Shown here: positions 38,659-46,225 of the stretch, piece after piece
Layout: every line of letters begins with the position of its first letter
Position numbering within the stretch: position 1 is the first letter of the stretch
Assembly: GCA_007126245.1 (NCBI GenBank)
Contig: SLBP01000069.1
Location: forward strand, 1 to 48,580
DNA length: 48,580 bases
From: Planctomycetales bacterium
GTDB taxonomy: Bacteria; Planctomycetota; Planctomycetia; Pirellulales; Thermoguttaceae
Direction of reading: 5' to 3'
Notes under the pieces: model-generated
Database searches by the model: none
Seen by the model: only the letters and a program-made list of their open reading frames with translations
Told to the model about the DNA's origin: nothing
Position numbers and translations under genes: made by a program

Positions 38659-38771
38659 GCATTCCAGCACCCTCCGTTTCGGGGAGCGGTAGACCGAAGT
38701 ACCGGTATGGCGGTATAATGCTCGCACGAGGCGGCGGCGCACATGATCGAGACGGAGAACGAGGTCCTGCC

Positions 38772-39317
38772 ATGCACCGACTGCTGCTGGCCTTTCGCGC
38801 CTTCTTCCGTATACTCTTCAATCGGGCGCTGGCGGAGCAGATCGAGCCGCTGCTGATCGCCGGGCCCGAGGCCCCTCCGGCCGAGCCGAAACCGGCCCCG
38901 AAGCCGAAACCGCCGCCCAAGCCGGCGGCCCCGGCGCGGAGCGAGGCACTGACGCTGCTGGCCTCGCTCCAGCGCGAAGCCCGCTTCGTCGACTTCCTCC
39001 GCGAATCGCTGGACGATTATGCGGACGCCCAGGTGGGTGCCGCGGCCCGCGACGTCCACCGCGGCTGTGCGGCGGTCGTCGAGCGGTTCTTTGCCCTGCG
39101 GCCGCTCGTCGACGGAGAAGAAGGCAAGGAGATCGAGGTGCCCGGGGGCTTCGATCCGGGGCGCTTCCGCCTGACGGGTAACGTCGCCGGCAGTCCCCCT
39201 TTCCGGGGCCGCATCGTCCATCACGGCTGGGAGGCCACTGCGTGCAACGTGCCCGAATGGACCGGTGGCGAGGCGGCGGCCCGCGTCGTGGCGCCGGCGG
39301 AGGTGGAATTGCCATGA
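38772..39317 (+). CDS. DUF2760-like protein (N-terminal amphipathic/hydrophobic helix, Pro/Lys/Ala-rich linker, conserved C-domain)
   Basis: Track ORF 38718..39317, with the start at ATG 38772 (MHRLLLAFRAFFRILF...). The DUF2760 assignment is from memory of that family's pattern (LAFRAFF...; ...LLASLQREARFVDFL..E......DAQVGAAAR.VH.GC). It should be confirmed by HMM. Confidence 0.55.
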   Translation: MHRLLLAFRAFFRILFNRALAEQIEPLLIAGPEAPPAEPKPAPKPKPPPKPAAPARSEALTLLASLQREARFVDFLRESLDDYADAQVGAAARDVHRGCAAVVERFFALRPLVDGEEGKEIEVPGGFDPGRFRLTGNVAGSPPFRGRIVHHGWEATACNVPEWTGGEAAARVVAPAEVELP

Positions 39318-39342
39318 ACGGAGGCAGCTCGAGGAACGAGGG

Positions 39343-41139
39343 ATGACGAAATCCGGATCCCAGTACGTCATCGGCATCGATCTGGGGACGACGAACTGCG
39401 TGTTGGCCTACGCCCCGCTTACCGAGGAGGCGCCTCGGATCGAGCTACTCCCTGCCCCTCAGTTGGTGGCGGCGGGGACCGTCGAGGCGCGGACCGGCCT
39501 GCCGTCGTTCACTTACCTGGCCAGCCCGCACGAAACCGGCGGCGGGGCCCTCGACCTGCCGTGGGCCGCGGGTCGGGACTTCGCCGTGGGCGAATACGCA
39601 CGCCGGCAAGGCGCCGAGGTCCCGGACCGCACCGTGGGCGCCGCCAAGTCGTGGCTCTGCTACAGCAAGGTCGACCGCCATCAACCGATCCTGCCTTGGA
39701 ACGCCCCGGCGGAGGTACCGAAGATCTCACCGGTGACGGCCTCGACGCACTACCTCGCGCATCTCGTGGCGGCGTGGGAGGCGGCCTTTCCGGATGCCCC
39801 CTTGGCCCGTCAGAAGGTCGTGCTCACCGTCCCCGCCTCCTTCGATGCTGCCGCCCGCGAGCTGACGCGCGAGGCCGCCCTCGCCGCCGGCCTGCCCGAG
39901 GGACTCGTCCTCATCGAGGAGCCCCAGTCGGCCGTCTACGCCTGGCTGGCGGCGATGGGCGACCGTTGGCGGCGCCGCCTGACCGTGGACAACACGCTGC
40001 TGGTCTGCGACGTCGGCGGCGGAACGACCGACCTGACACTCGTCCGCGTTGGCGAGGAAGGGGGCGAATTGGTCCTCGACCGCATGGCGGTGGGGAACCA
40101 CCTCCTCGTGGGCGGCGACAACATGGACTTGGCCCTGGCCCATTTCGTGGCCGGCCTCTTCGCCGAAAAGGGCGTGACGCTGGATCCATGGCAGTCCGTG
40201 GCCCTGTGGCACTCGTGCCGGGCGGCCAAAGAGGCGCTCTTCGCTGCCCACGGCCCCGAAACCCACACCATCTCCGTGCTCGGCCGGGGGAGCAAACTCG
40301 TCGGGGGTACGGTCTCCGTGGAGGTCGACCGCGCGGCAGTCGGCGAGTTGCTCCTGGAGGGTTTCTTTCCGCAGTGCACCTTGGGTGAACGGCCCGTCCG
40401 GCGGCGGGTCAGCGGCTTCGCGGAGATCGGCCTCCCCTTCGAGTCCGACACGGCCGTGACCCGTCACCTGGCGACCTTCCTCTCCGCGCACGGCGAAGAC
40501 GGCGGGGCCGTCTACCCCAGCCATGTCCTCTTCAACGGGGGGGTCTTCAAAGCGGCGCGGCTCCGCGAGCGGCTCCTGGCCACGCTCGCCGGTTGGTTTT
40601 CCGGAGAAGAAGCTCCCGCCGTTCTCGATCCGGCTGCCGATCTGGACCATGCCGTGGCCCGGGGGGCCGCCTACTACGCCTGGGCCAAGGAGGCCGGGGG
40701 TGTGCGGATCCGGGGCGGAACCGCACGGGCCTACTACGTGGGCATCGAGACCTCGGGGCTGGCCATTCCCGGAGCGCCCCGCCCCTTGCGCGCCCTGTGC
40801 GTCGTTCCCTTCGGGATGGAAGAGGGAACGGAAGTGGAGGTCCCTTCTCAGGAGATCGGGCTGGTGGTCGGCGAGCCTGCCCATTTCCGCTTCTTCAGCT
40901 CCCCGACCCGCAAGCAGGATCGTCCCGGCAACCTGCTCCCCACGTGCGCCGAGCTGGAGGAGACCGACTCGATGGAGACCACGTTGCCCGCCGACGAGGA
41001 CATCGAGGAACCCTACGTGCCGGTGCGCTTCCAAAGCCGAATCACGGAGCTGGGAATGTTCGAGCTCTGGTGCGCGGGGACCCAGACCGACAAGCGGTGG
41101 AAGCTGGAATTCAGTGTCCGCGAGGAGGGGGAGGGGTAG
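39343..41139 (+). CDS. Hsp70-family (actin-fold ATPase) protein, short paralog (598 aa)
   Basis: Track ORF 39265..41139, with the start at ATG 39343. Phosphate-1 motif IGIDLGTTNCVLA, EPQSAVYAW, phosphate-2 motif DVGGGTTDLTL, GGDNMDLALA. Confidence 0.85.
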   Translation: MTKSGSQYVIGIDLGTTNCVLAYAPLTEEAPRIELLPAPQLVAAGTVEARTGLPSFTYLASPHETGGGALDLPWAAGRDFAVGEYARRQGAEVPDRTVGAAKSWLCYSKVDRHQPILPWNAPAEVPKISPVTASTHYLAHLVAAWEAAFPDAPLARQKVVLTVPASFDAAARELTREAALAAGLPEGLVLIEEPQSAVYAWLAAMGDRWRRRLTVDNTLLVCDVGGGTTDLTLVRVGEEGGELVLDRMAVGNHLLVGGDNMDLALAHFVAGLFAEKGVTLDPWQSVALWHSCRAAKEALFAAHGPETHTISVLGRGSKLVGGTVSVEVDRAAVGELLLEGFFPQCTLGERPVRRRVSGFAEIGLPFESDTAVTRHLATFLSAHGEDGGAVYPSHVLFNGGVFKAARLRERLLATLAGWFSGEEAPAVLDPAADLDHAVARGAAYYAWAKEAGGVRIRGGTARAYYVGIETSGLAIPGAPRPLRALCVVPFGMEEGTEVEVPSQEIGLVVGEPAHFRFFSSPTRKQDRPGNLLPTCAELEETDSMETTLPADEDIEEPYVPVRFQSRITELGMFELWCAGTQTDKRWKLEFSVREEGEG

Positions 41140-41280
41140 CGGCTGGTGGCTGGTGGACGGTGACTGGATTGGGAGTGGCACGTCCCCGAGTGCCATGGGT
41201 GGGAGTGGCTGGCGTCTGGGCATACGCCACGCTCCAGCCGCCGGTGCAATCGGTAATCCTCTGGTAGACGGACTCTTGGC

Positions 41281-44145
41281 GTGGCAGACATCGCAACCAA
41301 CGGCGAGGCCCCGAGCCGCTTCGTGATCGGCTTCGACCTGGGAACGACGAACTCGGCGGTGACCTTCGTCGACAGCCAGCGGCAGCCCTGGCGGATCGAG
41401 ACCTTCCCCGTGCCGCAACTGGTGGCCGCCGGGCAGGTCGAGGCCCGGGAGACGCTGCCTTCGTTCCATTATGAACCGGCGGAGGGGGAGTTCTCTCCCC
41501 GCATGCTGCAGCTCGCTTTCCACGATGAGCCACCGGGCTACGTGGTGGGGTTCTTGGCACGCGACCAGGGCACCCTCGTGCCCGGGCGGCTGATCGCCTC
41601 GGCGAAGTCGTGGCTTTGTCACACCGGGGTGGACCGCACCGCGGCCATCCTCCCCTGGCAGGGGGCGGCCGACGTCATGCGGCTCTCTCCGGTCGAGGTC
41701 AGCGCCCGCTATCTGGGCCACGTGCGGGCGGCTTGGGACGCGGCGTTCCCCGAACACCCCATGGCGGAGCAGGACATCATCCTCACCCTCCCCGCCTCCT
41801 TCGACGAGGTGGCCCGCGAGCTCACCGTCAAGGCGGCGGCCCAGGCAGGACTCCCCCGCATCGTCCTCATCGAGGAGCCGCAGGCGGCCTTCTATGCCTG
41901 GATCTACAAGCACCGCGACGATTGGAGCGAACGCGTCACGGCCGGGCAGAAGATACTCGTCTGCGACGTCGGCGGCGGCACCTCCGACTTCACCCTGATC
42001 CGCGTCCGCCGCACGGACGACGATCGCGTGCAGTTCCACCGCGTGGCCGTGGGCAATCATCTGATCCTCGGCGGCGACAACTTCGATCTGGCCTTGGCCC
42101 GCCACATCGAAGAGCGCCTCGTCGGCGAAGGGGGGCTCGAGCCGCGGCAGTGGGCGGTCCTCGTCCGTAGCTGCCGGCACGTCAAAGAGGTCCTCCTCGG
42201 CGAGAACGCCCCGGAGAGCTACAGAGCCCACCTTCCGGGGAGCGGGGCGCGGCTCGTAGGCGGCGGCATGCAGGTCGAGGTGAGCCGCGGAGAGGTCCGC
42301 GACCTGATCGTCGAGGGCTTCCTGCCTGGGATCGCACTCGACGAGAAGCCGCTCCGCCGCCAGAGCGGCTTTCAGGAGTTCGGGCTGCCCTATGCAGCCG
42401 ACCCGGCGATTACCCGTCACCTGGCGGCGTTCCTCTCCGCGCACCGCCACGTGGCCCTCGACGACGCCGAGGCGGCACCTGCCGAAGGCATCGACCCGGC
42501 GCGGCCCGACGTGCTCCTCTTCAACGGCGGCGTGTTTGCCTCGCCCCAACTGCGGGATCGCCTCGTAACGGCCCTTTCGCGCTGGTTCGCCGGCGAGGGC
42601 GAAGCTGCCTGGCGGCCGATCGTCCTGGACCACGACCGGCTCGACCTGGCGGTGGCCCGCGGCGCGGCCTACTACGGGATGGTCCGCCGCGGCGAGGGGG
42701 TGCGGATCGCCGCCGGCCTGGCGCGGACGTATTACATAGGGGTCGAAGCGGCGCCGGGCGAGGTCGCAGCCCCGGCCACTGCCGAACCCCAGCCCACAGC
42801 CCTCTGCGTCGTGCCCGCAGGCGTCGAACCGGGGGGCGAGGTCGACCTGACGGAGCGGGCTTTCGACCTGGTGACCTCTGAGCCGGTGGAGTTCCCCCTC
42901 TTCGTCTCGAGCACGCGGCTCACCGACCGTCCCGGCGAGTTGATTCCCTTCGACCGCGAGCAGATGACCGCGCTGCCGCCGCTGCGGACGGTGCTCCGCA
43001 CCCGCAAGAGAAGCGATTCCCCCTTGGCACGGGTCGACCTCCACGCCCGGCTCACGGAGATCGGAACGCTCGATCTCTGGCTCAGCGAGAAGGCCGGGCG
43101 GCGGACGTGGCGCCTGCAGTTCGACGTCCGTTCGGCCACGCAAACGGACATTGCCGCGCGGGAGACGACTGCGGAGCGCGAGGGGGTGGTCGACGAGGCC
43201 ACATGGGAAGCCGCCGAGACACTGATCCGGGAGGCCTTCGCCCCCGGGGGGCGGGGGCGTCCGGAGTCGTTGGCCAAGGCGCTGACGCGGGCATTGGGAA
43301 GCAGCCGCCAGGAGTGGCCTACGTCGCTGCTGCGGCGGATCTGGGAGGCGCTCATGGACGTGGAGTCCGGCCGCCGCCAAAGCGCCGTCCACGAGGCCCG
43401 CTGGCTGAACCTGGTGGGCTTCGCCCTGCGCCCGGGCTACGGGCTGGCGGTGGACGACTGGCGGGTGGCGCAGACCTGGCGGCGGCTGTACGGGAAGCTG
43501 GTCCACCCCACCCCCATGTGCCGCGCCGAGTGGTGGATCCTCTGGCGGCGGATCGCCGGCGGCCTCTTAGCCGGTTGGCAGCAAACCCTGGCCGACCCTC
43601 TGCTGGCCTCGCTCCGCGGACTGCACCGCCAGGCGAGGGGCAAAGGGCGCGGCGGCGAGATGGCCTTCGGCTCGCACGAGCTGGCCGAGGTGTGGCGGCT
43701 CCTCGGTTCCCTTGAGCTGCTGCCGGTGCCCGTCAAGCACGAGTTGGGAACCATGCTCCTCGACCTGGCCGGGCGGCCGAAGTTGGAGCCGGTTCGCGGG
43801 GCGATCCTCTGGGCCGTGGGGCGGATCGGCGCGCGGCAGCCGGTCTACGGTCCCCTGAACACGGTCGTGCCCGCCGAAACCGCGGCCCGCTGGCTGGCCG
43901 CGCTGCTGAAGTCCGAGTTCGACGAGCCGCTGCTCCCGTTCGCCGTGCTCCTGTTGGCCCGCCGCACCGGCGACCGCTACCGGGATCTCGACGAGCGGAC
44001 CCGCGAGAGGGCGCTCGCCTGGCTGGCCCGCCGCGAGGCCCCCGCCCACTTCGCCGCGCTCATCGCCGAGGTGGGCCAGCTCGACGCCGAGGAGCAAGGG
44101 CTGGCTTTCGGGGAGTCGCTACCCAAGGGTCTGCGCATCCCTTGA
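41281..44145 (+). CDS. Hsp70-family protein, long paralog (954 aa) with ~450-aa helical C-terminal extension
   Basis: Track ORF with a GTG start. IGFDLGTTNSAV, EPQAAFYAW, DVGGGTSDFTLI, GGDNFDLALA. The C-terminal extension is Arg/Leu/Trp-rich and predicted helical. Confidence 0.85.
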   Translation: MADIATNGEAPSRFVIGFDLGTTNSAVTFVDSQRQPWRIETFPVPQLVAAGQVEARETLPSFHYEPAEGEFSPRMLQLAFHDEPPGYVVGFLARDQGTLVPGRLIASAKSWLCHTGVDRTAAILPWQGAADVMRLSPVEVSARYLGHVRAAWDAAFPEHPMAEQDIILTLPASFDEVARELTVKAAAQAGLPRIVLIEEPQAAFYAWIYKHRDDWSERVTAGQKILVCDVGGGTSDFTLIRVRRTDDDRVQFHRVAVGNHLILGGDNFDLALARHIEERLVGEGGLEPRQWAVLVRSCRHVKEVLLGENAPESYRAHLPGSGARLVGGGMQVEVSRGEVRDLIVEGFLPGIALDEKPLRRQSGFQEFGLPYAADPAITRHLAAFLSAHRHVALDDAEAAPAEGIDPARPDVLLFNGGVFASPQLRDRLVTALSRWFAGEGEAAWRPIVLDHDRLDLAVARGAAYYGMVRRGEGVRIAAGLARTYYIGVEAAPGEVAAPATAEPQPTALCVVPAGVEPGGEVDLTERAFDLVTSEPVEFPLFVSSTRLTDRPGELIPFDREQMTALPPLRTVLRTRKRSDSPLARVDLHARLTEIGTLDLWLSEKAGRRTWRLQFDVRSATQTDIAARETTAEREGVVDEATWEAAETLIREAFAPGGRGRPESLAKALTRALGSSRQEWPTSLLRRIWEALMDVESGRRQSAVHEARWLNLVGFALRPGYGLAVDDWRVAQTWRRLYGKLVHPTPMCRAEWWILWRRIAGGLLAGWQQTLADPLLASLRGLHRQARGKGRGGEMAFGSHELAEVWRLLGSLELLPVPVKHELGTMLLDLAGRPKLEPVRGAILWAVGRIGARQPVYGPLNTVVPAETAARWLAALLKSEFDEPLLPFAVLLLARRTGDRYRDLDERTRERALAWLARREAPAHFAALIAEVGQLDAEEQGLAFGESLPKGLRIP

Positions 44146-44156
44146 TCGGCGGCTGA

Positions 44157-46058
44157 TCAAGGGAAGCGCGCGGCGGCGGAGCTGTCGAGCCCGAGCTCGT
44201 CGAGGACGTGGCCCAAGGCCCAGCGGATGAACAGGGGATAGTCGCCTTCGGCGGCGAGCTCGCGGGTCACCGCCTCTTGGATCTGGGGCAGGACGGGCTC
44301 GGCCAGTTCGCCCAAGGCGGAGAGGGTCACGGCGGCGTAGAGCCGCACGTAGGGGTTATCGCTTTCCAGGCCCGCGGCAACGACGGTCAGTGCCTCGTCG
44401 GGCTCGCCGAGGCGCGTGAGGGCCTCGGCGGCGGTGAAACGGACCTCGGGAGCCGGATCGGCCAGTGCCGCGTCGAGCTCTTCGCGGTAGGGCAATGCCC
44501 GCTCCCCCGCCGCGAGCAGCCCCACGGCGGCCCAGAAGCGCACCGCGGCGTCGTGGTCGAGCAGCATGGCAAGGCGCGGCTCGAGCGCGCTGCGAGGCAG
44601 GGCAGCGTCGAGAAGCCGCTCGTCGAAGCCGCCGGGCTGCCGCGCCATGGTGTAGGGGGCGTCGTCGCCGCTGCGGCGGAACATCTCCGGCTCGGGGAAC
44701 AGCCCCAGATCGTTGGTCTGGCGCATCCAATCGAAGAGGGCGTCGCGGAGGCGGACGAAGGACGCAGGAGGCGGTGCATCGCCCGCGGCAAGGTTGTCGA
44801 GCTCGTGGGGATCGCGGCTGAGGTCGAAAAACTCGATGGGCGGCTTCGTGGGGGCCGTGAACTCGGCGGCGGGGCCCTCGAGCTCGCCGGCGGCGCGGAG
44901 GCGGCGGAGCTCCTGCCGCGTGGCAGTGATCTCCGAGAAGGTGCTCCGGGGCATCATGGGGCGGTGGGGCATGAAGTGGATGATCAGCTTGTACCGCCCG
45001 TCGGTGACCGCCCGGCTCATGTCGTAGACCTCGTCGACGCGGTCGGCGTAGGCGAAGACGTACGGCTGCGGCAGTCCCTCTTGCGGCCCGAGGAAGGCCC
45101 GCCCCTCGATGATCTCCGGCACCTCGACGCCGGCAAGGCTCAGGACGGTAGGGGCGAAATCCACGAAGCTCACCAGCCGGTCGACCGACTCGCCGGGTGC
45201 GGCCGGGGCGAGGTGCCGGTACTTCTCCGGGAAGTGGACGATCAGAGGGACGTGGATGCCCCCCTCGTAAAGCCAGCGCTTGTGCCGCGGCAGGCCGGTG
45301 CCGTGGTCGGAATAGAAGAAGACGATGGTGTCCTCGGCCAGCCCCTCCTCTTCCAGCTCGGCGAGGAAGTCGCCCACCAGGTAGTCCATGGCCGTGGTGA
45401 GGTCGTAGAGCCGCGCCAGGTCCTCCCGGACGGCGGGGGTGTCGGGATAATACGGGGGGACGACCATTGCCGCCGGATGGTGCCGCTCCTCGGGACCGAG
45501 CCGGGCCAGTTCGGGGATGTCCTCTTCGGCGAAGCGGATGCGGCTCTGATGCGTCGTCATGATGTTGAAGACGGCGAAGAAGGGCATCTCCGGGTCGGGG
45601 CGGTTCCGCCAGTGGGCGGTGGTGCTCGACTCGTCCCACGTCTCCGGCGGCGTGATGAACTGGTAATCCTCCTTGACGTTGTTGGTGCAGTAGTAGCCGG
45701 CCTCGCGGAGGTACATGGGGAAGGGCCGCACCTCCGGCGGCAGGGTGATGACGGTGCGGAGGTGCTGCCCGCCGAGGCTGGTGGCGTACATGCCGGTGAT
45801 GAGCGTATTCCGCGCCGGGCTGCAGACGCTGGCGTTGGCGTAGGCGCGGGTGTAGCGGACTCCTTCGGCGGCCAGCCGGTCGATGTGGGGTGTGCGTGCC
45901 TGCGGATCGCCGTAGCAGCCGAGTACGGCACTCAAGTCCTCGGCGGTGATCCAGAGGATGTTGGGGCGCTCGTCAGCGAGTGCTGTGCTCCCCCACACGG
46001 CCGAGGAGAGCAGCAGGACAATCGGCAGGGCGAGGCGGAGACCACTCGGGCGGCACAT
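44157..46058 (-). CDS. sulfatase (C-x-P-x-R) fused to a C-terminal HEAT-repeat region, with signal peptide
   Basis: Track ORF 44157..46238, with the start at ATG 46058 (GAGGAG SD). Signal peptide MCRPSGLRLALPIVLLLSSAVWGSTALA. Motifs: VCSPARNTLITGM, FFYSDHG. The C-terminal ~200 aa carry repeated A.VR..AA.AL..LG units (PBS-lyase/HEAT-like). Confidence 0.85.
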   Translation of the reverse strand: MCRPSGLRLALPIVLLLSSAVWGSTALADERPNILWITAEDLSAVLGCYGDPQARTPHIDRLAAEGVRYTRAYANASVCSPARNTLITGMYATSLGGQHLRTVITLPPEVRPFPMYLREAGYYCTNNVKEDYQFITPPETWDESSTTAHWRNRPDPEMPFFAVFNIMTTHQSRIRFAEEDIPELARLGPEERHHPAAMVVPPYYPDTPAVREDLARLYDLTTAMDYLVGDFLAELEEEGLAEDTIVFFYSDHGTGLPRHKRWLYEGGIHVPLIVHFPEKYRHLAPAAPGESVDRLVSFVDFAPTVLSLAGVEVPEIIEGRAFLGPQEGLPQPYVFAYADRVDEVYDMSRAVTDGRYKLIIHFMPHRPMMPRSTFSEITATRQELRRLRAAGELEGPAAEFTAPTKPPIEFFDLSRDPHELDNLAAGDAPPPASFVRLRDALFDWMRQTNDLGLFPEPEMFRRSGDDAPYTMARQPGGFDERLLDAALPRSALEPRLAMLLDHDAAVRFWAAVGLLAAGERALPYREELDAALADPAPEVRFTAAEALTRLGEPDEALTVVAAGLESDNPYVRLYAAVTLSALGELAEPVLPQIQEAVTRELAAEGDYPLFIRWALGHVLDELGLDSSAAARFP

Positions 46059-46225
46059 CAGGTTTTCTCCTCGTCGGGATGCGTGCGGGGGGGAGGAAGA
46101 CGCCCCACCAGCATACCCGCCTCCGCCAACCGTCCGCAACACAATCCGCGGTATTCGCCCTGCGGATCCCGCAGGAGGCGCTTCCCCCCCCGCCGGCGCG
46201 CAATAGCGCCAGCACCACCGGGAAC

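Follow-up and report, generated by a model that had tools for sequence, protein, structure and literature searches.

The locus and its three genes

The stretch of DNA analysed here, referred to as the window, comprises 48,580 nucleotides of contig SLBP01000069.1 from a Planctomycetales bacterium (assembly GCA_007126245.1). Its forward strand carries a closely linked trio of genes, designated A, B and C (Table 1), which encode a DUF2760 protein and two unequal Hsp70-like ATPases and which as a system differ from every characterised Hsp70 machine. The three genes are co-oriented and separated by gaps of 25 bp (A-B) and 141 bp (B-C). A first-pass annotation, made by a model from the sequence alone, had given coordinates, strand, sizes and gaps exactly as found in the table of open reading frames (ORFs); the public gene calls agree in protein length. 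The starts of all three genes are identical to the public calls for the same proteins and agree with homologue alignments. Annotation with hidden Markov models (HMMs), which the first-pass annotation had proposed as a check, assigned DUF2760 to A, HSP70 to B, and HSP70 plus DUF3731 to C. DUF2760 and DUF3731 are already in Pfam and are routinely annotated by NCBI; the families are a known unknown, of which the window contributes one more typical example rather than something new.

Table 1. Positions of the trio, of its domains and of other features mentioned in the text
Feature	Position in window	Strand	Basis or remark
Gene A, DUF2760 protein, 181 residues	38772-39317	+	ORF table; public gene calls agree in length
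A residues 2-29, basic amphipathic helix (HRLLLAFRAFFRILFNRA...), putative membrane-binding element	38775-38858	+	Predicted structure, homologues
A residues 30-56, Pro/Ala/Lys-rich low-complexity linker	38859-38939	+	Disorder in model, variability
A residues 57-181, conserved DUF2760 alpha/beta domain, ~125 residues	38940-39314	+	Homologue alignment
Gene B, predicted lidless Hsp70-like ATPase, 598 residues	39343-41139	+	ORF table; Pfam
B domains: ATPase ~1-447, linker GVRIRGG, putative beta domain ~455-598	within 39343-41139	+	
Gene C, Hsp70-like ATPase with predicted C-terminal solenoid, 954 residues	41281-44145	+	Pfam HSP70 and DUF3731
C residues 483-615, predicted beta-rich domain similar to the substrate-binding beta-sandwich of Hsp70	42727-43125	+	AlphaFold2, Foldseek
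C residues 639-953, predicted ARM/HEAT-like alpha-solenoid (DUF3731), ~300 residues	43195-44139	+	AlphaFold2, Pfam
Sigma-70-like promoter candidate TAGACC-18-TATAAT	38690-38719	+	accC-A intergenic region (113-bp spacer), ~50 bp 5' of the A start
Inverted repeat GGCAC-N8-GTGCC	41170-41200		In the B-C spacer
Sulfatase with C-terminal HEAT repeats	44157-46064	-	Convergent downstream gene
ORF of 2,159 residues	3711-10190	-	
ORF of 978 residues	19491-22427	-	

Two divergent Hsp70-like ATPases

Proteins B and C matched the Pfam HSP70 profile PF00012 with E values of 6.3e-15 (54.8 bits) and 4.2e-17 (62 bits), respectively, at a cutoff of 20.6 bits. All of B aligned to residues 12-617 of C with 47% identity (E 4e-164) and the two are, as judged from their sequences, paralogous Hsp70-like ATPases. 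The phosphate-1 (VIGIDLGTTN in B, VIGFDLGTTN in C) and phosphate-2 motifs (CDVGGGTTDLT in B, CDVGGGTSDFT in C) were both found, as the first-pass annotation had claimed. The two proteins were aligned with DnaK, HscA, HscC and YegD of Escherichia coli MG1655 and with homologues from Planctomycetota and Alpha-, Beta- and Gammaproteobacteria. In this alignment DnaK residues D8, T11, K70, E171, D194, G196-198, T199, D201 and G341-342 are all kept in B, in C and in the homologues. Since the catalytic set is retained, both B and C should bind and hydrolyse ATP.

The features by which DnaK responds to its J-domain partners have a different fate. Published work on DnaK has placed the J-domain contact at R167, N170 and T173 and has assigned to the hydrophobic interdomain linker the role of passing on J stimulation. 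In the B/C family the NEPT motif of DnaK is replaced by EEPQ (N170E, T173Q), R167 by V, I or T in most copies (two C copies have R), R71 by S, and the DVLLLD linker by R-I-x-G-G. DnaK, HscA and HscC, all of which work with J partners, retain R167, N170 and T173 in the same alignment. The loss of the J-contact residues and of the DVLLLD linker fits a J-independent cycle of B and C. The absence of adjacent dnaJ and grpE genes had also been claimed beforehand; this holds for dnaJ, in that the whole 48.6-kb window encodes no J-domain protein, whereas grpE was not searched for directly. Nor does the window encode any Hsp70 other than B and C.

Identity of B and C to DnaK is 25-28%, and to the four E. 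coli proteins together 25-31%, in each case within the ATPase domain alone, in keeping with the high divergence from DnaK that had been noted. The best NCBIfam scores were 76-78 bits vs 620-708 for HscA, 65 vs 822 for DnaK and 26-29 vs 331 for PRK11678, which is about an order of magnitude under every equivalog cutoff. In a neighbour-joining tree (590 columns, 100 bootstraps), B and C together formed a clade in 99 of 100 bootstraps, and B was monophyletic in 89 of 100. The clade lies outside DnaK, HscA, HscC and YegD, the four proteins against which the first-pass annotation had proposed to place the ATPases. This position and the low NCBIfam scores uphold its view of a dedicated, non-canonical Hsp70 system distinct from the housekeeping DnaK. 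The lineage groupings look broadly alike in the B and C parts of the tree, a pattern from which it follows that the B/C duplication is older than the split of the sampled lineages and which suggests that B and C were inherited together.

The region following the ATPase domain

The match of B and C to PF00012 stops at about profile position 300. The region beyond was examined in an AlphaFold2 model of C residues 397-954, built with 70 homologues (mean predicted local distance difference test score, pLDDT, 77.5). The model displays in succession the last helices of the ATPase domain, a poorly defined linker, a beta domain and a helical domain. The beta domain consists of nine predicted strands with pLDDT values of ~64-85. 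In a Foldseek comparison with 350,542 PDB chains, isolated Hsp70 substrate-binding domains ranked at the top (BiP 5e86, E 1.9e-3, probability 1.0; DnaK 4r5l and 1dkz; HSP70 4po2) and accounted for most of the first 50 matches. Homology at the level of sequence between the beta domain and Hsp70 substrate-binding domains was rejected: hhalign and a profile search were null, and the comparison of folds alone was positive. The earlier statement that neither ATPase has an obvious beta-sandwich is therefore correct for the sequence but not for the model, with its nine-stranded, substrate-binding-like domain. The corresponding domain of B is deduced by homology with the part of C that was modelled. 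According to the alignment of B to C and the model of C, B ends at the last beta strand, and a helical lid is absent. In both ATPases the beta domain is likely to be a divergent Hsp70 substrate-binding domain.

The extension specific to C comprises ~335 residues (618-954). Its residues 701-953 matched Pfam PF12531, DUF3731 ('DNA-K related protein'), over profile positions 1-248 of 248 with an E value of 1e-76 (258.5 bits, cutoff 25). The structure prediction that had been recommended for this region yielded an ARM/HEAT-like solenoid whose helical domain, residues 639-942, has pLDDT values of mostly ~90 or higher. The solenoid contains many invariant Trp, Arg and Gly positions, e.g. in WLN..GF.LRPGYG...DDWRV. 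The first-pass annotation had described the extension as helical and rich in Arg, Trp and Leu; its length is shorter than the ~450 residues given there. In terms of the model, B is a lidless Hsp70 and C an Hsp70 in which a solenoid has replaced the lid.

An alternative is a non-chaperone role. B and C might constitute a regulatory switch of the actin/Hsp70 fold, the role ascribed to Ssz1 and to StkA of Myxococcus, or a membrane-associated filament or scaffold, with A as the membrane receptor and the solenoid as an interaction platform. Weak matches of B and C to MreB/Mbl and BeeR, below threshold, would accord with such a function, and some bacterial Hsp70 paralogues are known to signal, e.g. 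StkA (PMC4319316). A candidate counterpart of the trio is subject to regulation in Vibrio cholerae, in which VC1373 and VC1374 are listed as 'DnaK-related protein' and belong to the predicted operon VC1375-1373 (PMC9201469, PMC10328515). The quorum-sensing regulator HapR binds to and activates the promoter of this operon in vivo and in vitro (PMC10328515), and its repression in biofilms has been recorded (PMC9201469). Its orthology to A-B-C is a lead suggested by the matching layout. Arguing against a non-chaperone switch are the retained residues K70, E171 and T199, which are those of Hsp70 and not those of actin or MreB, the resemblance of the region after the ATPase domain to an Hsp70 substrate-binding domain, and the fact that the matches to actin-like families all stay under the cutoffs. 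We regard this alternative as improbable.

The DUF2760 protein

Protein A matched Pfam PF10816 (DUF2760) over profile positions 3-124 of 124 with an E value of 5.9e-47 (159 bits, cutoff 25), which turns the DUF2760-like pattern seen at first pass into a family assignment. Its start codon, at MHRLLLAF, is backed by homologue alignments, and the ATG is preceded by a GGAG/GAGG-rich stretch. At the N-terminus, helices are predicted for residues 2-16 and 18-29, with a hydrophobic moment of 0.46. The basic amphipathic helix is conserved (M-x-R-L-x-L-A-F-R-x-F-F-x-x-L-F), and among planctomycete-type homologues the motif M-x-R-L-x-L-A-F-x-x-F-F is kept. A clear transmembrane helix takes the place of the amphipathic helix in 74 of 249 N-terminal parts of A homologues (KD19 >= 1.6), and the Bradyrhizobium copies, judged by eye, likewise have a transmembrane-like N-terminus. 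Two listed homologues have basic residues after the transmembrane helix, which by the positive-inside rule assigns the remainder of the protein to the cytoplasm. The linker that follows has pLDDT values below 50 at residues 31-36 and no secondary structure over residues 30-57, and it differs in length and sequence between homologues. Within the DUF2760 domain Q67, R71, D74, G136, H150, G152 and W153 are invariant; a structural match to the domain was sought among PDB chains and none was found. Together these features indicate that A is probably a membrane-associated protein with a cytoplasmic domain.

Ten longer DUF2760 homologues were scanned for fusions. A single fusion was found, in P0336, in which an N-terminal MarR winged-helix DNA-binding domain is joined to DUF2760. 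The others have extended N-termini, some of which contain a transmembrane-like stretch, and domain fusions were accordingly dismissed as a clue to the function of DUF2760. On the Bradyrhizobium plasmid pCC829_3 a separate MarR gene lies directly 5' of A (L082 8321-8605). These two cases hint that a MarR-type regulator, responsive to a ligand or to stress, may control some copies of the operon in some lineages.

Distribution and gene order

Relatives of A number more than 5,000 in a 90%-clustered collection, form 1,908 clusters at 50% identity (E <= 1e-3) and include at least 586 confirmed matches in a one-genome-per-species collection. Across planctomycete families A is 60-68% identical, and C is 63-70% identical over its full length among Pirellulales and Thermoguttaceae. 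Gene order was determined in two sets of loci. The planctomycete-type set consisted of 80 loci from the one-genome-per-species scan, mostly Planctomycetota with some Fibrobacterota, Verrucomicrobiota, Acidobacteriota and Phycisphaerae. Sixty-eight of them were long enough to judge: the arrangement A-B-C was present in 30 (one of them in a frameshifted long-read assembly), A-B with no C within 10 kb in 25, and A alone in 13. A second scan, seeded with proteobacterial A sequences, provided 80 metagenome loci. Among those that were fully informative, 16 had A-B-C and two A-B without C; in 27 further loci B follows A and the contig ends before C would be visible. A-B is the tightest pair of the trio.

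The order A-B-C was found in Planctomycetota, Alpha- and Betaproteobacteria, Fibrobacterota and Verrucomicrobiota, on three other planctomycete contigs with wholly different flanks, and in annotated form on two Bradyrhizobium plasmids and one Comamonadaceae replicon. In the annotated proteobacterial copies A and B overlap by 4 bp or lie 115 bp apart, and B and C are 27-32 bp apart or overlap. The proposed operon is accordingly co-conserved across phyla with unrelated flanks, although the trio is not invariant. A belongs to DUF2760, the genes are co-conserved, and the ATPases fall outside the DnaK, HscA, HscC and YegD groups, the three points on which the first-pass annotation had staked its proposal beforehand. 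The trio is best read as old and largely vertically inherited.

Neither all-against-all clustering of 1,577 ORFs from ~160 loci nor a Pfam census of 144 neighbour genes, in which the top family occurred in 3 of 144, disclosed a fourth conserved gene or a recurrent partner. In one planctomycete locus C stands alone between thyX, murJ and ribD. In several long-read metagenome-assembled genomes (L002, L006, L034, L036, L040, L056 and L061) B or C is split into 2-4 ORFs; the probable cause is frameshifting at homopolymers during assembly, and the split copies are probably not pseudogenes. A locus assigned to 'Candidatus Multivoradales' (L038 13335-18212) contains a C homologue within a stop-to-stop ORF of 1,625 residues, ~1 kb from B; this ORF may have an extra N-terminal region or be an artefact of ORF calling.

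Published work and the relation to DnaK

A literature collection of 8 million full texts yielded no functional study of the A, B or C families and no occurrence of 'DUF2760', 'DUF3731', 'PF10816' or 'PF12531', and 'DnaK-related protein' appears in gene lists only. The statement that no function of the trio has been characterised agrees with this result. A 2026 review draws attention to the many derivatives of DnaK in bacteria that are uncharacterised and proposes for them a role as Hsp110-like co-chaperones of DnaK; the A-B-C trio is not described in it (PMC13580251).

Applied to the trio, this proposal would make B and C auxiliaries of canonical DnaK. They would bind to DnaK through contacts between the ATPase domains, serve as exchange factors of the Hsp110 kind or enhance disaggregation, and form no autonomous machine, with A as a regulator or localiser. 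It is exactly the role put forward for bacterial DnaK-like paralogues in the review, according to which paralogues with a DnaK-like ATPase domain are confined to genomes in which a true DnaK is also encoded (PMC13580251). Two loci would be compatible with it: in a planctomycete (L040) a canonical DnaK-like gene lies a few kb from the trio, and on plasmid pCB82_1 of Bradyrhizobium sp. CB82 groES-groEL are located ~1 kb 3' of the trio (L093 14228-16272). However, B and C both keep full catalytic sets, which are not needed for exchange of the Hsp110 type, since the exchange-factor activity of Hsp110 is independent of hydrolysis. Moreover, two paralogues and a dedicated third protein have apparently been kept together for very long, which suggests that they act on one another, and consistent linkage to dnaK, dnaJ or grpE is absent in the ~160 loci. 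We therefore consider a purely auxiliary role unlikely.

Mobile or defence elements

A function of the trio in phage defence or another kind of conflict, with the Hsp70-like ATPases as sensors or effectors, was also considered. Some observations speak for it. On plasmid pTs485 of Candidatus Thiodictyon syntrophicum (L083, 1-15100) A-B without C lies in an apparent defence island together with genes for DUF3780, DUF1156, a VapC toxin, a PLD-like anti-phage helicase, a Uma2 endonuclease and a TIR-domain protein; it is the sole defence-type context among the ~160 loci. Two Bradyrhizobium copies are carried by conjugative plasmids, and in PADLOC-DB 2.0, where A has no match, B and C reach the candidate PDC-M61B at E ~1e-3 (16-17 bits). 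The latter similarity is a generic likeness of the Hsp70 fold and not a real PADLOC match. In a PADLOC scan of 144 neighbour genes, the matches listed appear traceable to a small number of proteins, chiefly the PLD-helicase of Thiodictyon and a generic kinase.

The trio was unmatched in 50,697 phage records and in the 2.9 million viral contigs of IMG/VR, and A occurs on 11 of 72,556 plasmids, mostly megaplasmids or chromids. Absence from the phage and viral sets and rarity on plasmids render a defence role unlikely. The conserved unit includes no nuclease, protease, TIR or pore-type effector, and the neighbours of the trio are heterogeneous, largely metabolic or housekeeping, and differ between genomes. 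The very high conservation, the housekeeping flanks in Planctomycetota and the dispersal of the components in many genomes, which is atypical of defence cassettes, suit a stable cellular function better. A defence system was accordingly rejected, with PADLOC null for the trio and unsystematic for the 144 neighbours, and phage records and IMG/VR null. The trio is probably not a mobile or defence element, and a conflict system is in our estimation very improbable.

Surroundings of the trio in the window

The G+C content of the window is ~67-70%, with no compositional break at the trio. The window is planctomycete-like, as indicated by DUF1559 genes and by closest homologues labelled Pirellulales, Thermoguttaceae or Planctomycetaceae. 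On the 5' side pepP, accB and accC are read from the same strand; on the 3' side the sulfatase-HEAT gene and a gene for a Gfo/Idh/MocA oxidoreductase converge on the trio. The fusion of HEAT repeats to the sulfatase is unrelated to the trio, and the repeated presence of sulfatases and Gfo/Idh/MocA oxidoreductases close to the trio in other planctomycetes simply reflects the very large size of both families in this phylum. Rfam families and tRNAs were not found in the window.

The promoter candidate 5' of A, identified by its match to the consensus alone in a phylum whose promoters are poorly defined, agrees with the consensus in 10 of 12 positions; there were 2 such sites in 9.2 kb vs 0.4 expected. 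No terminator-like site was found between A, B and C or 3' of C. The spacer between B and C contains a short inverted repeat without a T-run; the spacer itself is not conserved, and B and C abut or overlap in many other genomes. Elsewhere in the window, the ORF of 2,159 residues contains a zf-HC2 anti-sigma-like finger together with a Ser/Thr kinase domain, an ExbD-like segment and four DUF1559/T2SS-G prepilin-like stretches. It represents either one mosaic protein of unusual size or a series of genes that share an uninterrupted frame. The ORF of 978 residues has no Pfam match at E <= 1e-5.

A proposed mechanism

The reading that we favour, with a probability of roughly 0.45, is that membrane-tethered A and the B/C pair form a self-contained machine that uses neither DnaJ nor GrpE. 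In this mechanism A would be held on the cytoplasmic face of the inner membrane by its N-terminal helix, a true transmembrane helix in some lineages, and would recruit or activate B and C through its DUF2760 domain, thereby providing the targeting and activation for which DnaK depends on J-proteins. B and C would constitute a working pair, as Hsp70 does with Hsp110 or Grp170. One partner, or the solenoid of C, would drive nucleotide exchange or hold a specific client, and the other would cycle on the client through its divergent substrate-binding domain. The machine would probably remodel, extract or assemble one particular client close to the membrane and would not serve general folding.

Several observations weigh against this mechanism. 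We infer the interactions of A with the ATPases and of B with C from linkage alone. Instead of anchoring A to the membrane, its amphipathic helix could bind a partner or act as a pseudo-substrate. The likeness of the beta domain to substrate-binding domains is weak (Foldseek E values of 2e-3 to 2e-2, probabilities of 0.9-1.0, template modelling scores of ~0.3); hhalign detected no sequence signal to Hsp70 substrate-binding domains (probability 0.1), and the profile search scored the real domains no better than 4,000 shuffled ones. Finally, the genes are dispersed in many planctomycete genomes, where C and sometimes A lie elsewhere, so that A, B and C need not be made stoichiometrically, and some systems seem to be without C, which may therefore be accessory; the Thiodictyon plasmid carries A-B alone.

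To our knowledge, every Hsp70 system characterised to date is driven by J-domain proteins. If the self-contained machine exists as proposed, a widespread and strongly conserved two-Hsp70 module without J-contact residues would represent a second way to run the Hsp70 cycle, and the constant partner of the two ATPases would be a different small protein, one without a structural match in the PDB. The trio is present in the tractable hosts Burkholderia and Bradyrhizobium and probably, as VC1373-1375, in Vibrio cholerae, which makes experiments feasible. The function of DnaK paralogues in bacteria, a question raised recently (PMC13580251), could be tested directly on it.

Comparison with known Hsp70 systems

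With DnaK-DnaJ-GrpE the trio shares the ATPase fold, the catalytic residues, the predicted order ATPase domain-linker-beta domain, and the composition from several components. Unlike DnaK, B and C possess neither the DVLLLD linker nor R167, N170 and T173, and the helical lid is absent: B is predicted to stop after the beta domain, and C to continue in the ARM/HEAT solenoid. A J-domain partner was not detected in the window (grpE was not searched for directly), and the third component is a DUF2760 protein, for which the PDB offered no structural match.

The specialised paralogues HscA, HscC and YegD resemble B and C in that their lids are shortened or missing. HscA-HscB and HscC-DjlC are encoded beside dedicated cofactors, as B and C are beside A, and YegD likewise lacks R167, N170 and T173. 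B and C differ from them in lying outside all of their clades and far under the NCBIfam cutoffs. HscA and HscC use J-proteins, YegD consists of the ATPase domain only, and none of the three has a second Hsp70 or a DUF2760 protein as its partner. StkABC of Myxococcus xanthus is a three-gene locus that is headed by an Hsp70 homologue unrelated to heat shock and has a regulatory phenotype (PMC4319316). It was rejected as a characterised equivalent of the trio, as its proteins are different: StkB is SCP2-like, StkC PhaE-like, the one Hsp70 has 540 residues, and neither DUF2760 nor DUF3731 is present.

The armadillo-type nucleotide exchange factors HspBP1, Fes1 and Sil1 are counted among the closest known systems, as are the pairs of Hsp70 with Hsp110 or Grp170 (Ssa1-Sse1; BiP-Lhs1). 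These pairs likewise consist of two unequal paralogous ATPases, the longer with an enlarged helical C-terminus, and in the endoplasmic reticulum the pair BiP-Lhs1 is positioned by a membrane-anchored cofactor, Sec63. Hsp110 is reported to be specific to eukaryotes (PMC13580251). In Hsp110 an elongated lid bundle makes up the C-terminal extension, in C a predicted ARM/HEAT solenoid; the membrane cofactor of the endoplasmic reticulum is a J-protein, A a DUF2760 protein. The duplication that gave rise to B and C was a separate one in bacteria, and a B-C heterodimer is putative. That the trio is a bacterial, independently evolved counterpart of Hsp70-Hsp110, with a B-C heterodimer, an ARM/HEAT module for a client or for nucleotide exchange, membrane-tethered DUF2760 as the cofactor that switches on and positions the pair in place of the J-domain, and a specific membrane-proximal client, is a tentative idea, conceivable but on balance doubtful. 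The eukaryotic pairing of Hsp70 with Hsp110 or Grp170 offers the best functional analogy for the layout of A, B and C.

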